From contig JAPLXC010000004.1 of assembly GCA_026396275.1 (NCBI GenBank), positions 1,193-65,192 on the forward strand: a stretch of DNA of 64,000 bases, in the 5' to 3' direction. Below the pieces are notes generated by a model that worked only from the letters and a program-made list of their open reading frames with translations, ran no database searches and was not told the origin of the DNA. Below are positions 6,890 to 42,383 of this stretch, one piece after another. Every line of letters begins with the position of its first letter. Positions within the stretch are counted from its first letter, which is position 1. Source of the stretch: Candidatus Moraniibacteriota bacterium. Its GTDB lineage: Bacteria; Patescibacteriota; Minisyncoccia; Moranbacterales; JAPLXC01. A program made the position numbers and the translations under genes.

Positions 6890-6920
6890 AAAATCTTCCT
6901 TTTGACGGAGGGTTTTTTTG
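6890..6920 (+). terminator. Hairpin + U-run just upstream of leuS
   Basis: aaatcttcc-ttttgac-ggagggttt-tttt. Confidence 0.5.
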
Positions 6921-6937
6921 TTGATAAACTTAATAGT

Positions 6938-9889
6938 ATGGAAAAATACAACTCGCGGAAAATAGAGAAAAAGTGGCAGAAGAAATGGGAAGAAAGCGGA
7001 ATTTACAAGAATTACAAAAAAGACAAGAAATTCTACGCTCTTGATATGTTTCCTTATACCTCCGGCGAGGGTTTGCACGTGGGCCATCCGAGAGGATACA
7101 TCGCCACTGATGTCGTTTCCCGTTTCAAGATGCTTCAGGGAGCAAGCGTTCTTCATCCGATGGGATGGGACGCTTTTGGCTTGCCAACAGAAAATTACGC
7201 CATCGAGCATAAAATTCACCCGCGGATCGTGACCGAAAAAAATATTTCTGTTTTTAAAAAACAGCTTCAAATGTTTGGTTTTACCTATGATTGGGATCGG
7301 GAGATTAATACAACGGATCCGGGATATTACAAATGGACGCAGTGGATTTTTTTGAAAATGTTTGAAAAAGGACTGGCTTATGAGTCGAACGAGCCGATTA
7401 ACTGGTGCCCCTCCTGCAAGACAGGGCTGGCGCTGGAGGATTTGGAAAAAGGATTATGCGAACGTTGCGGAACGCAGGTAGTGCAGAAAAAAATGAGACA
7501 GTGGGTTTTAAGGATGACAAATTATGCTGATCGTCTGCTTTACGATCTGGACAGCGAAGATCTAGATTGGGAGGAGCAGATTTTAGAACAACAAAGAAAC
7601 TGGATCGGGAGAAGCGAGGGAACAGAGTTCAAGATGCCAGTTGTCATTGCGAGCGAAGCAAAGCAATCTCGTACAGAAGAATCAAATTCAGAGATTGCCG
7701 CGTCGCCTTCGGCTCCTCGCAATGACATCTATATTGAAGTTTATACCACCCGTCTGGATACGGCCTTTGGGATGACATATGCAGTAGTAGCACCGGAACA
7801 TCCAATCGTCGCTTCGCTTCTCAAAATCAAAAATCAAAAATCAAAAATCAAAAATATTGAAGAAATTAGAAATTATATAATCCGGTCACAGAATAAAACA
7901 GAGCTGGAAAGAATGGAGGCAAAGGAAAAAACAGGAATGGAAATTAAAGGAATAAAAGTTATAAATCCTTTCACTAATGAGGAAATTCCGTTATTTGTTG
8001 CCGATTATGTTTTAGGCCACTACGGCACCGGCGCAGTGATGGCTGTGCCAGCACACGATGAAAGGGACTGGGAATTTGCGAGGAAATATAATTTACCCAT
8101 AAAACAATCAATCGTTCCAAATTACAGAGAATATGAAACTACAATAAAGACCCTAAATGCACTTAGAGAAATCTATAGAGCAGCTGAAAAAAAAGACTTA
8201 AGATTTTGGCTACTTGGCGGACTAGCTTGCGCTTTTTATGCGGGAATAATTTATAGGGAACACAATGATTTAGATTTAATTACCGAAAATGAAAATGACC
8301 GTATTAAAATGTTTCAATTATTGGAAAATTTGGGATTTAAAAAAATAAAGGAGAAAAAAATATCAGAAAATCTCATCAACTTTGTTTATCAACGAGGAGA
8401 AATTGAAGTTGATATTGGACCCAATCAAGGCGAATTTGGTTTGGCTGGTGATTTTGAGGAAGATATTAAATATCTAGGAGAATACCAGTCAAGAGTATTA
8501 AGCAAACGATTTGTCAAAAGTTTTAAAGAATATCAGTTGAAGACTAGAGATGAAAAAAAAGACCAAATAGACGTGGAATATTTAAGTGGTAAAGTTTTGA
8601 TTGATGATGAAGTATTGGTTAATTCTGAAAAATATTCAGGACTAACTTCCCAAAAAGCCCGAGAGGAAATGGCAAAGTGGCTGGAGAAACAAAGAATCGG
8701 CAAGAAAAAAATAAATTACAAAATGCGTGACTGGGTGTTTTCCAGACAGCGTTACTGGGGAGAACCCATTCCCATAATTCACTGCGAGAAATGCGGTGCA
8801 GTAGGGGTGCCGGAGAAGGAATTGCCTGTTACTTTGCCGGATGTTGAAAGTTACGAGCCGACCGGGACGGGCGAATCGCCACTGGCGAATATCAAAGATT
8901 GGGTGAACACCACTTGTCCCAAATGCGGCGGACCGGGAAAAAGAGAAACCAATACTATGCCTCAATGGGCGGGCTCCTCCTGGTATTATCTTCGCTACAT
9001 TGATTCAAAAAATGAAAAGGAACTTGTTGGAAAAAAAGAAGAAAAAAAGTGGATGCCGGTGGATCTCTATGTGGGCGGGATAGAACACGCTACTCGTCAT
9101 CTTCTCTACGCACGATTCTGGCACAAGTTTTTATACGATATTGGTGTTGTTTCCACAAAAGAGCCGTTTAAAAAATTAGTTCACGTCGGGCTCATTGGCG
9201 GAGAGGACGGCAGAAAAATGTCCAAGCGCTGGGGCAATGTCGTCAGTCCTAACGACGTGATAGAACAATTCGGAGCGGACTCAATCAGATTGTATGAAAT
9301 GTTTATGGGGCCTTTCACCCAGGGTATTTCATGGAGTACGGCAGGGGTAAGTGGGATGAGGAGATTTTTGGAGAAAGTATGGAAATCGCAAAATCGAATT
9401 ATGAATTACGAATCAGGAATTAAGAATAACGTTGAAAATTTATTGCATAAGACAATCAAAAAAATAACAGAAGATATAGAAAATTTCCGATTTAATACCG
9501 CACTAAGCTCGATGATGATATATATTAATCAACTTGAGAAACAAAAGAAAATATCCATGATTCATTATTCACAATTCCTAATTCTATTGAGTCCCTTCGC
9601 CCCCCATATCGCCGAAGAGCTATGGGAGAAACTAGGACACAAAGAAAGCATATTCCGGCAGTCCTGGCCGAAGCATAATCCGCAATTGATAAAAGACGAG
9701 GAAATAGATCTGGTAATCCAAGTCAATGGAAAAGTCCGCGACACTGTTAAAGTATCAGCCGATATTTCCGAAGATGAAGCGAAAAAACTAGCCTTTGAAA
9801 ATCAAAAAGCAAAAACCTTTACAAAGGAAAAAGTAATTAAAAAGGTCATTTTTGTAAAAGGCAAGTTAATTAATATCGTAGTTTCTTAG
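6938..9889 (+). CDS. leuS: Leucyl-tRNA synthetase with an inserted nucleotidyltransferase-like domain and in-frame repeat insertions
   Basis: MFPYTSG-HVGH, GWDAFGLP, YGTGAVMAVPAHD, DWVFSRQRYWG, KMSKR; start moved to ATG 6938. Confidence 0.95.
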   Translation: MEKYNSRKIEKKWQKKWEESGIYKNYKKDKKFYALDMFPYTSGEGLHVGHPRGYIATDVVSRFKMLQGASVLHPMGWDAFGLPTENYAIEHKIHPRIVTEKNISVFKKQLQMFGFTYDWDREINTTDPGYYKWTQWIFLKMFEKGLAYESNEPINWCPSCKTGLALEDLEKGLCERCGTQVVQKKMRQWVLRMTNYADRLLYDLDSEDLDWEEQILEQQRNWIGRSEGTEFKMPVVIASEAKQSRTEESNSEIAASPSAPRNDIYIEVYTTRLDTAFGMTYAVVAPEHPIVASLLKIKNQKSKIKNIEEIRNYIIRSQNKTELERMEAKEKTGMEIKGIKVINPFTNEEIPLFVADYVLGHYGTGAVMAVPAHDERDWEFARKYNLPIKQSIVPNYREYETTIKTLNALREIYRAAEKKDLRFWLLGGLACAFYAGIIYREHNDLDLITENENDRIKMFQLLENLGFKKIKEKKISENLINFVYQRGEIEVDIGPNQGEFGLAGDFEEDIKYLGEYQSRVLSKRFVKSFKEYQLKTRDEKKDQIDVEYLSGKVLIDDEVLVNSEKYSGLTSQKAREEMAKWLEKQRIGKKKINYKMRDWVFSRQRYWGEPIPIIHCEKCGAVGVPEKELPVTLPDVESYEPTGTGESPLANIKDWVNTTCPKCGGPGKRETNTMPQWAGSSWYYLRYIDSKNEKELVGKKEEKKWMPVDLYVGGIEHATRHLLYARFWHKFLYDIGVVSTKEPFKKLVHVGLIGGEDGRKMSKRWGNVVSPNDVIEQFGADSIRLYEMFMGPFTQGISWSTAGVSGMRRFLEKVWKSQNRIMNYESGIKNNVENLLHKTIKKITEDIENFRFNTALSSMMIYINQLEKQKKISMIHYSQFLILLSPFAPHIAEELWEKLGHKESIFRQSWPKHNPQLIKDEEIDLVIQVNGKVRDTVKVSADISEDEAKKLAFENQKAKTFTKEKVIKKVIFVKGKLINIVVS
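7642..7727. repeat. GTCATTGCGAG-family palindromic element, in frame in leuS
   Basis: tgtcattgcgag...ctcgcaatgaca inverted ends; encodes VIASEAKQS...APRND. Confidence 0.85.
7823..7855 (+). repeat. AAAAATC heptamer tandem array, in frame in leuS
   Basis: (aaaaatc)n encoding KIKNQKSKIKN. Confidence 0.9.
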
Positions 9890-13965: not shown

Positions 13966-14014
13966 TTTCGCAGTGGGCACACCAAGATTCGAACTTGGGA
14001 CCTCGTCATTATCA

Positions 14015-14157
14015 GCTTGCCCCGCACTAAAATTCAATCTTTGTTTATACTTTTAGTGGGCGATGGAAGACTCGAACTTCCGACCTCGTCATTATCAGTG
14101 ACGCGCTCTAACCAACTGAGCTAATCGCCCAAATACTTCTTGAATTTTTAGTGCGGG
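14015..14157 (-). mobile_element. CCCG...CGGGGCAAGC palindromic element carrying a tRNA
   Basis: Inverted arms ccccgcactaaaattcaa / ttgaatttttagtgcgggg enclose the inner tRNA. Confidence 0.75.
14057..14130 (-). tRNA. tRNA-Ile(GAT), intact, nested in the interrupted tRNA-Ile
   Basis: GGGCGATTAGCTCAGTTGGTTAGAGCGCGTCACTGATAATGACGAGGTCGGAAGTTCGAGTCTTCCATCGCCCA, full cloverleaf. Confidence 0.95.
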
Positions 14158-14216
14158 GTGAACGCTCTATGCCTGCCGGCAGGCAGGTAACCAACTGAGC
14201 TATGTGCCCTTATCCG

Positions 14217-14289
14217 TGGACCGTGCCGGAATCGAACCGGCTGCCTCCGCAGTGCAAATGCGGCGCTCTACCAGGTGAGCTAACGGCCC
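14217..14289 (-). tRNA. tRNA-Ala(TGC)
   Basis: GGGCCGTTAGCTCACCTGGTAGAGCGCCGCATTTGCACTGCGGAGGCAGCCGGTTCGATTCCGGCACGGTCCA; G3:U70 pair. Confidence 0.95.
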
Positions 14290-14365
14290 TGCGAGAGGCT
14301 TATACTTAATAAAATAACACTAAAAGCTATTATAACCAATTTTTTCAATTTGTCCAGATCCCAAT

Positions 14366-14393
14366 TTGACAAAAAATCTGCTTATTATACAAT
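14366..14393 (+). promoter_or_regulatory. Sigma70-like promoter for secE-nusG
   Basis: TTGACA-16-TACAAT. Confidence 0.55.
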
Positions 14394-14515
14394 AATGTAA
14401 AAGCCCTCGGGGCTTTTTAAAAAAGGGCATAATCTCGAAACCCGCAACCTGAAACCTAAAAATCAACATATCAATATGTTTGAATCCAAATGGTTACAGG
14501 TTACAGGCTACAGGA

Positions 14516-14704
14516 ATGATTAATAAAGTTGTCACATTTATAAAAGAAGCACGGATTGAACTGAAAAAAGTTAACTGGCCGTCAAAAAAGCAAACTATTA
14601 ACTACACACTGATAGTTATTGGAATAAGCTTGGCAGTAGCGGCTTTTTTGGGAGGGCTGGATTATGTGTTTGGATATTTATTGAAGGTATTTATTATCAA
14701 ATAG
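14516..14704 (+). CDS. secE: Preprotein translocase SecE
   Basis: ELKKVNWPS + one TM; start moved to ATG 14516 because upstream is repeat DNA. Confidence 0.93.
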   Translation: MINKVVTFIKEARIELKKVNWPSKKQTINYTLIVIGISLAVAAFLGGLDYVFGYLLKVFIIK

Positions 14705-15356: not shown

Positions 15357-15468
15357 ATCCCGCACCAATTCCGAACATAGTTTTACGTAAAGTAAAGTTA
15401 TATCCACGGAATCGCCTGCGGCTTAGTTCTGGTAATTATTAAATTTTTACAATGAATTAGTGCGGGAT
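15357..15468. mobile_element. 112 bp element with 15 bp terminal inverted repeats (CCCGCAC family)
   Basis: atcccgcaccaattc ... gaattagtgcgggat, one mismatch. Confidence 0.65.
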
Positions 15469-16814: not shown

Positions 16815-17831
16815 ATGAATATAAAGGTAAGGAAGATAAGGGAAGATGCTAAAGTTCCAATTAGGGCATCTGATGGTGCAGTAGGATATGATGTTTTTGC
16901 TTCAAGGGTACTGGATAAATTTACCAAGGAAGTAATTCAGGATTTGCCGGTAGAAATACTTGGTGGCGCTAGTGTATTAATCGGTATTGGAGTAAAAATG
17001 GCTGTGCCCTGGCCGTATGAGTGCCAAGTTAGACCCAGGAGTGGTCTTGCGAGTAAATTTGACATCGAACTTTCTAATTCTCCAGGAACAATAGATCCCG
17101 ACTTCAGGGGCGAAGCAGGTGTTCTTTTGAGAAATAGAGGAAAAGAAACTTTTGTTGTGGAAAAGAATATGAGAATTGCTCAATTAATTTTCTCTAAAGT
17201 CGAAATCCCGATTTTAGAAGAAACGAAAGAGCTCCCTGCAACTAGGAGGGGAACTGGCGGTTTTGGATCAACAGGACTTCATGGAGATGGATTAGGGACT
17301 GATGAATATAATGAATACATAAAAGAAATGGATAGGTATTATATGAGAGTGGTTCTTGCAGTAGCGGATCGCTCCACATGTGTCAGGGGGGTAAAAAAAG
17401 TAAATGGTAAATATGAAAGAGATAAAAAGGGAAAATTGGTTGGCCAGAATCGCAGATTCGGTTGTGTGATTGTGAAGAATGATAATATCCTTGCTCAAGG
17501 TTTTAATGACCAATATTACGGTTCTCCAAAATGTGCTGACGCAGGATGTTTGAGGGAGGAGTTGAATATTCCCTCTGGTACGCAAATTGAAAAATGCAGA
17601 GCAATGCATGCCGAGTGGTGGGCATTCACTAATGCAGGTAAAATGGATAGCTCGCCGACACTTAAAGGTGCTACTGTCTATGTCAATGCGGAACCATGCG
17701 AAATATGCGCAAAGATGATTGTTGGTTTTGAGATTGATACAGTTGTTTTACTAAAAGGTATTTATCCAACTAATGGCATCAGGATTTTAAAAGAAGGAGG
17801 AGTGAATATAAGGTATATTGAAATTAATTAA
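16815..17831 (+). CDS. dUTPase - dCMP deaminase fusion protein
   Basis: N-half: GYD, RPRSGLA, GTIDPDFRGE, RIAQL, RGTGGFGSTG; C-half: HAE and PCEIC Zn deaminase motifs. Confidence 0.9.
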   Translation: MNIKVRKIREDAKVPIRASDGAVGYDVFASRVLDKFTKEVIQDLPVEILGGASVLIGIGVKMAVPWPYECQVRPRSGLASKFDIELSNSPGTIDPDFRGEAGVLLRNRGKETFVVEKNMRIAQLIFSKVEIPILEETKELPATRRGTGGFGSTGLHGDGLGTDEYNEYIKEMDRYYMRVVLAVADRSTCVRGVKKVNGKYERDKKGKLVGQNRRFGCVIVKNDNILAQGFNDQYYGSPKCADAGCLREELNIPSGTQIEKCRAMHAEWWAFTNAGKMDSSPTLKGATVYVNAEPCEICAKMIVGFEIDTVVLLKGIYPTNGIRILKEGGVNIRYIEIN

Positions 17832-17839
17832 GACCTAGA

Positions 17840-17873
17840 AAGGCTCTTAGTTTGAATAAACTAAGAGCTTTTT
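17840..17873 (+). terminator. Intrinsic terminator
   Basis: ggctcttagttt-gaat-aaactaagagct-tttt. Confidence 0.75.
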
Positions 17874-17944
17874 CCTTTATTAAGCCGTTTTTTGACAAGT
17901 TTGGCTAAAGGCGGTACAATGAAATAACTGATTACTAACTTCCT

Positions 17945-18469
17945 ATGGCTAAAAAAGCTTTAAAAAAGAAAAATAAAAAGAGCGAGGAAAAGTATATTCG
18001 TCCGTCTTGGGATGAGTATTTTTTAGATCTAGTAGAAGCTGTTGGAAAAAGAGCTACCTGTGATAGAGGGAGAACAAGCTGTATAATTGTTCGCGAAAAA
18101 AGAATTCTTTCCACCGGTTATGTCGGTTCACCAATCGGAGCCAAGCACTGCGACGATGCGGGGCATGAGATACACACGGTTATCCAAGAGGATGGCACTC
18201 AATCTCGGCATTGCATCAGAACCAGCCACGCGGAGCAGAATGCTATTGCCAATGCTGCCAGATTCGGTATGCCTCTGGAAGGCGGAACACTTTATGCCCA
18301 TATGGCTCCCTGCTACACTTGCGCCAAAATGATTATAAACTCCGGGATAAAAAGAGTGGTCTGCCGGGTTGATTATCATGGCGCCAAACGCGCTAAAGAA
18401 ATTTTCAAGGAATGCGGGATTGAATTTGAACAGATTGAAGATAAAATGCAAACTTATAAAGATATGTAA
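17945..18469 (+). CDS. dCMP deaminase (ComEB-like)
   Basis: RPSWDEYF, RATCDR, HAEQNAI, PCYTC. Confidence 0.92.
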   Translation: MAKKALKKKNKKSEEKYIRPSWDEYFLDLVEAVGKRATCDRGRTSCIIVREKRILSTGYVGSPIGAKHCDDAGHEIHTVIQEDGTQSRHCIRTSHAEQNAIANAARFGMPLEGGTLYAHMAPCYTCAKMIINSGIKRVVCRVDYHGAKRAKEIFKECGIEFEQIEDKMQTYKDM

Positions 18470-18531
18470 TTCAAACGTACTACTTTTTCTGGTGTATGCT
18501 AAAAAAGCAGCACGCTTACAAAAAGTCAAAA

Positions 18532-19083
18532 ATGAGAAAAATAATCGCCATACTTGGATTACCCGGAGCTGGTAAAACCGAAGTTATAAATTATCTTATA
18601 AAAAAATACAACTGGCCGAAAGTTTATTTTGGCGATGTTACTTTTGATGAAGTTAAAAGGCGCGGATTGGAAATAAATGAGAAAAATGAAAGAACGGTGC
18701 GAGAAGATTTGCGCGCAAAATATGGAAGGTTGCATTATGCGTCGCAGGTAATAAAAAAGATTGAAGCGTTGCCGTCCGACACAAATGTCCTTGTGGAGAG
18801 TTTATACGACTGGAGGGAATATCTTTTTTTCAAAGAAAAATTTGGAAAGGAATTTATGACAATTGCGACTTATGCTTCGCCTGAAACTAGGTATGAGAGG
18901 CTGTCAAAAAGGCCAGAAAGGCCATTGACTCCGGAAGTAGCCCAAAGCCGGGATTATGCTCAAATTGAGAATCTTTTTCAAGCCGGACCAATTGCGATGG
19001 CGAATTATACCATAAATAATGAAGGTACATTTGAAGAACTTTATAGTCAGGTTGATGAGATAATAGAAAATATAAATAAATGA
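18532..19083 (+). CDS. P-loop nucleotide kinase (dephospho-CoA/NMP kinase-like)
   Basis: [15 protein letters not shown] lid; start moved to 18532. Confidence 0.75.
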
Positions 19084-42262: not shown

Positions 42263-42383
42263 AATAAATCAAAAATTAAAATGCAAAAATCAAAATGACA
42301 ATGCAAAGTCCAAAAAGAATAATTTTCTTTTTATATTTTAATTTGTCATTCCTGCCCGCCGGCGGGCAGGTTGAATTATTATT

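Follow-up and report, generated by a model that had tools for sequence, protein, structure and literature searches.

An intact tRNA-Ile(GAT) gene lies inside a second, broken tRNA-Ile gene on the minus strand of the window, by which we mean the whole stretch of 64,000 nucleotides that was analysed. A first-pass annotation had described such a tRNA within a tRNA, and every part that it named was found where it had been placed. The genome under study (G000) has 810,038 bases, is 99.67% complete and carries 47 tRNAs; its outer tRNA-Ile gene is compared below with L028, the intact tRNA-Ile gene of the genome G007. The features of the locus and its surroundings are, in the reading order of the minus strand:

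15357..15468, strand not assigned: the same arm pair as at the tRNA-Ile locus, here without a tRNA, in the nusG-rplK spacer (repeat search; gene names by eye)
14480..14704, plus strand: secE (context), above the TIGR00964 cut-off
14329..14356, minus strand: promoter-like site upstream of tRNA-Ala, 11/12 consensus match, putative function
14216..14289, minus strand: intact tRNA-Ala(TGC), 6 nt upstream of the outer tRNA-Ile (ARAGORN, Rfam)
14188..14209, minus strand: outer tRNA-Ile, 5' strands of acceptor and D stem and D loop, identical to the start of L028
14168..14187, minus strand: CCTGCC-type palindromic insert of 20 nt in the outer D loop (comparison with L028)
14163..14167, minus strand: 3' strand of the outer D stem plus nt 26 (GAGCG), at the left junction (comparison with L028)
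14159..14162, minus strand: left foot TTCA, in place of the CGTCA of the shell; same foot at other loci
14140..14158, minus strand: left arm with CCCCGCAC core, 13 nt of it pairing perfectly with the right arm
14056..14130, minus strand: cargo, intact tRNA-Ile(GAT) (ARAGORN; Rfam, 74 bits)
14020..14037, minus strand: right arm with GTGCGGGG core, pairing with the left arm
14016..14019, minus strand: right foot CAAG, the same in L167 and CGAG in L159
13973..14015, minus strand: 3' part of the outer tRNA-Ile (anticodon loop, 3' stem strand, T arm, 3' strand of the acceptor), identical to L028
13129..13965, plus strand: uppP (context; NCBIfam UppP models, best E 1.8e-72, below curated cut-offs)

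Structure and integrity of the locus

The unit that interrupts the resident gene, hereafter the cassette, spans 14162-14016 and consists of TTCA, an arm, the intact tRNA-Ile(GAT), the second arm and CAAG. It had been put at about 140 nt, inserted before the anticodon; the split is real and falls between nt 31 and 32 of the resident gene, and the length is refined to 147 nt, the TTCA and CAAG feet included. Apart from the D-loop insert and the missing CGTCA (nt 27-31, the 5' strand of the anticodon stem), the outer shell is letter-identical to L028, and its 3' part (14015-13973) displays a CTGATAA loop, a CCAAG/CTTGG T stem and TGTGCCC. The left junction may equally be viewed as an insertion after TCA, with the preceding two bases turned into one T. 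A test for target-site duplication was negative at this site, five target bases being lost or rewritten and none duplicated. The arms were rightly described as inverted: 13 nt are perfectly complementary (14158-14146 with 14032-14020), and pairing reaches about 5 nt beyond a 1-nt bulge past this core. The fold scores z = -4.6 as RNA and -5.9 as DNA, the inner tRNA itself contributing to both values, and 22 of the 39 genomic occurrences of CCCCGCAC[CT] lie within 300 nt of a tRNA, a zone that makes up 3.0% of the genome. The arm structure is beyond chance. D-loop inserts related to that of the outer gene (14187-14168) occur at the same site in L158, L164 and L305, and elsewhere in G000. One further CCTGCC-type palindrome lies at 42351-42370 of the window, with no tRNA there.

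The cargo is the sole Ile(GAT) gene among the tRNAs of this genome, which has an intact tRNA for each of 46 types (three CAT genes counted apart). It agrees with the outer-type gene at 63 of 74 letters, with 42 nt as the longest identical run, so a recent local duplication is excluded, as the first-pass annotation had argued; that run spans the entry site. No donor with matching flanks was found, the best matches of relatives over the cargo reaching 94-95% (40 genomes). Tandems of tRNA-Ala and tRNA-Ile with spacers of 2-18 nt are present in several relatives (L007, L008, L009, L011 and L021), and the outer gene thus occupies an ancestral slot: it is the former resident tRNA-Ile behind tRNA-Ala, now dead. 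Between the left foot and the start of the cargo no promoter-like site was called, and the site upstream of tRNA-Ala probably drives the cargo tRNA-Ile as well. The Ala-Ile unit (13973-14704) faces away from secE here and towards it in L008, L021 and L023, a local inversion.

A chimeric assembly of the tRNA genes of two strains is scarcely credible as the source of this arrangement. For the right junction, no bridging piece was among the Logan pieces listed for run X1, and pieces listed for runs X2-X4 bridged neither junction, X3 and X4 holding only small shares. Against a chimera, a 96-nt Logan contig from X1, a separate assembly of what may be the source sample, bridges the left junction (14104-14199) with 0 differences. 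Misassembly would add neither arms nor feet, nor would it repeat the junctions in unrelated assemblies, and we take these recurring junctions to be a stronger argument against an artefact than the X1 contig.

The anticodon-arm interruption closed by a helix resembles intron-containing and split tRNA genes as presented in the available parts of PMC4390854 and PMC4033280, from which it differs in that the exons do not seem to rejoin cleanly, EndA and a ribozyme are missing and a complete second tRNA lies inside. Excision of the insert at the RNA level, with folding of the arms and religation of the outer tRNA, is an extremely improbable reading. It would account for the long helix that the arms close, and two RtcB RNA ligases are encoded in the 810-kb genome (C1:1256-2530 and C19:25142-26476). 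When ARAGORN was run after removal of the inserts, one of six rejoinings yielded an Ile(GAT) call at the default threshold; this one needs two separate excisions and leaves an anticodon stem that is one base short, with three of five pairs. G000 has no match to the EndA model PF01974 (the control was positive in four archaea), and Rfam found two tRNAs but no group I or II intron in the window. In comparable shells around tRNA-Ala(CGC) the foot has taken the place of the anticodon, the 3' part is missing from several shells, and an intact tRNA of every type is at hand, which also speaks against splicing. The first-pass annotation was right to set aside tRNA-restoring islands as well as group I/II introns: the two outer halves are dead, and no ribozyme matched.

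Other observations concern the tRNA set and the rest of the window. The tRNA-Arg of G000 has the anticodon GCG, ACG being absent from the calls; ARAGORN reported no tmRNA, and Ser(CGA) was called twice. A leucyl-tRNA synthetase-like ORF of 995 aa at 6902-9889 contains inserted stretches, and at 16815-19083, judged by eye from familiar motifs, an ORF of 338 aa seems to join a dUTPase to a deaminase domain; a second deaminase and a kinase-like ORF come after it.

Recurrence at tRNA-Ile and other tRNA genes

Both junctions recur in the genomes G287 (L159) and G357 (L167), with different shells and cargos. The three shells have three different acceptor and T stem types, and their acceptor stems are still fully paired; each was thus split as a separate working gene. 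The left junction alone is also present in G003, L114, L161 and L164. As search patterns, the left junction occurs in 3 of 319 genomes of the order and the right in 2 of 401 genomes of the class, both counts including G000. Most relatives have a plain gene, and at none of 29 compared loci outside G000 does the left arm stand directly before the intact tRNA-Ile. A metagenome scan for the arm plus an intact Ile(GAT) gave six loci, and a broken Ile 5' part stands before each of them (by eye); two have the left junction of G000 and four have neighbouring junctions. Similar units were found in three records labelled Uhrbacteria, Peribacteraceae and Parcubacteria. A looser pattern gave at least 120 loci in a contig scan, of which 11 were kept after filtering, and no frequency is to be drawn from them: six are real units, L048, L068, L097, L100 and L105 with both arms and L114 with the left one only, all within a cognate shell (by eye), and the five others looked like chance. 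A phage vector was considered and rejected, as the 6 and 24 matches in viral contigs lacked the right arm and were chance-like; no relative of the arms was found in viral contigs.

Ten tabulated Ile cassettes have ten different cargos (56-70 of 74 letters alike) and ten different spacers, and no identical cassette occurs at two sites in this small sample. A single old insertion that spread by recombination through the tRNA core, its cargo and spacers being replaced later, would explain why identical junctions appear in distant lineages and why G000 and L164 agree at the start of the left arm and spacer; the core flanking the entry site, which hardly varies among Ile genes, also suits it. At least three junction types within Ile alone do not fit such descent, nor does the use of the same foot at tRNA-Ala, tRNA-Val and tRNA-Met genes, nor L167, whose shell and cargo both carry the other anticodon-stem type, and we regard this account as decidedly unlikely.

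Units of this kind are not confined to tRNA-Ile. A search for tRNAs bracketed by the arms, proposed with the first-pass annotation, was productive: an arm followed by a tRNA start gave 10 matches in 7 of the 319 genomes of the order. All ten lie inside a broken copy of the same isotype (by eye; for Val(CAC) the cognate shell rests on 15 upstream letters), and the reversed pattern, used as a control, gave none. In G000, both arms lie within 100 nt of seven of the 47 tRNAs (Ala CGC, Leu CAA, Thr TGT, Val TAC, Gly CCC, Ser CGA and Ile), and the left arm only near five more; Ala(CGC) is nested two deep. The TTCA left foot is seen again at the Ala, Val and Met loci of G000; L308 and L310 have it with the polarity reversed. 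Both arm polarities occur, and the orientation of the cargo is always that of the shell. Among the points of entry are the D loop, the anticodon arm and the T arm. An alignment scan placed own-isotype debris above the background maximum at 17 of the 47 tRNA loci, the threshold being a score of 30, the maximum of 135 random windows (1 of 94 reverse-strand controls exceeded it); Phe and Gly(GCC) were dropped from an initial 19 because their debris belongs to a neighbour.

These data bear on the two options that the first-pass annotation had left side by side. The first, an element that brought a replacement for the essential gene it destroyed, fits a cargo that is the only Ile(GAT) gene and units that always sit in a broken copy of the same tRNA. 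The second, in which the gene was first split by an empty arm element that later took in a foreign tRNA-Ile, comes out as less likely, and we consider it very improbable. Arm pairs that are empty or hold no tRNA do exist in G000 (C14:94455, 15357-15468 of the window, and C8), and inserts pile into one another. Since Ile(GAT) is single-copy, the intermediate would have had no decoder of AUU and AUC unless a second chromosome copy covered the loss, and two independent steps would leave the constant cognate cargo unexplained. Two of the tRNA-free pairs can be described further: that in the nusG-rplK spacer (15357-15468) has a similar interior at the same site in L277 (G242) and is absent from the spacers of three other relatives, and that at C8:15490-15601, feet included, lies within an open frame of 630 aa that it leaves unbroken.

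GIY-YIG nuclease genes between the same arms

The arm core of the cassette also surrounds genes for GIY-YIG proteins (L225/L240, L244, L248 and L251). L225, in the genome G001, is flanked by CCCCGCACC arms, and its product is a GIY-YIG protein by its features and predicted structure, the nearest solved structures being Slx1 and UPF0213 at weak E-values (6e-4 to 7e-3). Relatives of this protein gave 23 matches in 21 of 151 genomes of the class. Exact inverted repeats of at least 11 nt enclose 18 of the 23, compared with 6 of 589 ORFs of G000 taken as a control, and the CCCGCAC/GTGCGGG core surrounds four of them, the query included. The GIY-YIG proteins are mostly single domains of about 80-100 aa, typically about 85 aa, with no separate DNA-binding domain. 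No NCBIfam model was found for L225 or for the Ile-linked nuclease described below.

G000 itself has eight matches to PF01541, none on the contig of the tRNA-Ile locus. Five of these eight genes are each preceded by a broken 5' part of a tRNA, and the end of the gene directly adjoins an intact copy of that tRNA. The one closest to L225, on C20, is 49% identical to it and is flanked by CCCCCACCAC-type arms; no GIY-YIG gene lies inside CCCCGCAC arms in G000, and no arm pair encloses a tRNA and a nuclease gene together among the loci examined. For a wider sample, the best-scoring short 63 of 139 matches from 30 relatives were combined with the eight of G000 and three others, and 73 of these 74 gave a protein. 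By the cut-offs used, an intact tRNA adjoins 21 of the genes, another 21 are enclosed in inverted repeats, and neither holds for the remaining 31. In a tree built on only 88 columns, with 30 of 70 inner forks unresolved, clades follow the tRNA isotype (Ile, Ser GCT, Trp, Pro, Gln TTG) or the arm type across host families.

A separate Ile-linked clade comprises 17 matches in 16 of 151 genomes of the order, none of them in G000. Two are at Pro(TGG); the other 15 begin right behind a tRNA-Ile gene or a broken copy of it. After them comes a repeated Ile 3' part with a small hairpin in place of TCACTGA, a signature that differs from the arms of the cassette. The cargo at these loci is often identical to the 3' part of the target, so the enzyme cannot simply destroy all intact genes. 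A single-protein query found no relative of this nuclease in viral contigs. Several GIY-YIG genes have other notable surroundings: L187 (G003) lies between 19-nt inverted repeats, apparently in the start of the RNase P RNA gene (by eye), and L242 and L261 are arm-bounded genes at the 5' end of tRNA-Val(GAC) and tRNA-Ala(TGC), respectively, with an upstream copy of some 11 nt from the start of the tRNA.

Nucleases next to tRNA genes could also leave such structures behind without any mobile unit. A nuclease would break the resident tRNA, a foreign tRNA-Ile fragment would patch the gap by homology, and the arms would be written or copied on, each locus being made once and in place. Differences among all ten Ile cargos and spacers suit such a repair scar, as do both arm polarities relative to the tRNA and arms that extend inward by locus-specific complementary letters; in L162 a downstream copy mirrors the left spacer and the first tRNA bases, as expected from fold-back copying. 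The fixed polar feet, TTCA and CAAG, resemble element ends instead, and the same arm type surrounds nuclease genes and also occurs outside tRNA genes. We know of no repair enzyme that writes such an arm motif, and overall a scar seems unlikely.

A candidate mobile cassette and its relation to known systems

With modest confidence, we lean towards a non-autonomous, arm-bounded cassette that carries a cognate tRNA and is moved in trans by a Slx1-like GIY-YIG nuclease of about 85 aa. The anatomy, the precision of the site, the cognate rule and the shared arms are direct observations. According to this proposal, the nuclease would nick the foot of a hairpin or cruciform formed by the arms and so let the arm-bounded DNA move in trans; as it has no separate DNA-binding domain, it probably reads DNA shape. 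Two factors would bring the unit to rest in a cognate gene: pairing of the cargo with the target over the identical run of 42 nt that spans the site, and survival, since a cell whose single-copy tRNA gene is hit could live on only if the cargo is cognate. Joining may have proceeded on the left through the common TCA and on the right flush. The cassette would be tolerated because a cognate tRNA is aboard, the cargo being transcribed from the promoter of the resident tRNA-Ala. The dead shell could then gather further hairpin inserts, and repeated cycles may have nested tRNAs two or three deep. Activity of the enzyme, mobility, and the respective shares of homology and selection in targeting are proposed from sequence. 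Against a cassette stand the lack of the same cassette at two sites, of an arm pair with both a tRNA and a nuclease gene among the loci examined, and of an exactly matching nuclease in G000; neither cleavage nor excision was observed, nor a circular form or an unoccupied allele.

Short non-autonomous units with inverted or palindromic ends are familiar from MITEs, passenger IS derivatives and REP/REPIN-RAYT systems, where an enzyme gene flanked by the same repeats acts in trans. The cassette resembles MITEs and non-autonomous IS in that it has terminal inverted repeats in common with elements that encode a GIY-YIG protein. Unlike a MITE, it shows no target-site duplication at the Ile site and is not the same element at several sites (10/10 differ). 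It further departs from MITEs and REPINs in its association with a GIY-YIG nuclease instead of a DDE or HUH transposase and in an essential cargo that replaces the target. RAYT was rejected as a partner, since both Y1_Tnp genes of G000 are flanked by other repeats. These two RAYT-like genes (C19:3480 and C7:68358) are each flanked and interrupted by a short palindrome of their own.

Islands and prophages that use tyrosine integrases also split tRNA genes, often at the anticodon region, while the host keeps a working gene; according to the available part of PMC4383910, the target is rebuilt from a fragment that they bring along, a single displaced fragment stays behind, and the integrase is encoded on the element. 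Like them, the cassette splits a tRNA gene near the anticodon and the host retains the tRNA function. It differs in its size of 147 nt, without any ORF of at least 50 aa, in its inverted arms, in a complete and different tRNA between two dead halves and in the lack of target duplication. By analogy, its design works like that of a tRNA-targeting island combined with a MITE- or REPIN-like non-autonomous unit.

The closest enzymatic parallel is SegB of phage T4, a free-standing GIY-YIG nuclease encoded in a tRNA cluster, which cuts tRNA genes, those of its own phage included, and spreads with neighbouring tRNAs. As given in the accessible part of PMC2330249, SegB cuts at a T-arm motif, has a C-terminal NUMOD3 DNA-binding part, spreads via long flanking homology and is thought to be held at a low level. 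The likeness lies in GIY-YIG genes that adjoin tRNA genes, which holds for five loci of G000 and not for the Ile locus, and the difference in single domains of about 85 aa, nearest Slx1/UPF0213, that are chromosomal and arm-bounded. Slx1 is a structure-specific nuclease whose stand-alone prokaryotic homologues consist of a minimal GIY-YIG domain without auxiliary domains and, in the portion of PMC1564403 at hand, are treated as mostly vertically inherited, with a predicted role in repair; the inverted repeats and tRNA cassettes around the present genes set these apart and are not mentioned there.

Our search of the literature, mostly of non-subscription papers in their main texts without supplements, found no description of nested tRNA cassettes, and nested tRNAs are not mentioned in the available parts of two reviews of tRNA diversity (PMC4390854, PMC4033280) and of a meeting report (PMC10714607). 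The nested cassette is real and recurrent, and apparently unpublished. Three things have been measured here: the repeated splitting of separate working genes at the same Ile junctions, the match of cargo to shell, with its control, and the number of GIY-YIG genes linked to the arm type. The shared arm ends point to mobile DNA of a kind not yet described, which disrupts essential tRNA genes and supplies a spare.

To conclude, tRNA genes usually count as stable core genes that are inherited vertically and serve as passive landing pads. In this 810-kb genome they appear to have been overwritten from inside again and again, with older cognate debris at no fewer than 17 of the 47 loci. Annotation of split tRNAs in such genomes as introns or prophage attachment sites is thus inadvisable. 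If the link to the nuclease holds, the abundant family of GIY-YIG proteins of about 85 aa would gain a function, in a mobile-element chemistry that dispenses with integrase and transposase and in a very small, possibly cargo-guided insertion system. More tentatively, and with some doubt, these units may represent a new class of mobile DNA in ultra-small bacteria, in which the Slx1-like nuclease would recognise its own palindromic ends and the cargo tRNA would guide the unit into the matching gene and replace it. If so, at least a third of the tRNA genes of this genome would have been exchanged for foreign copies over repeated rounds.
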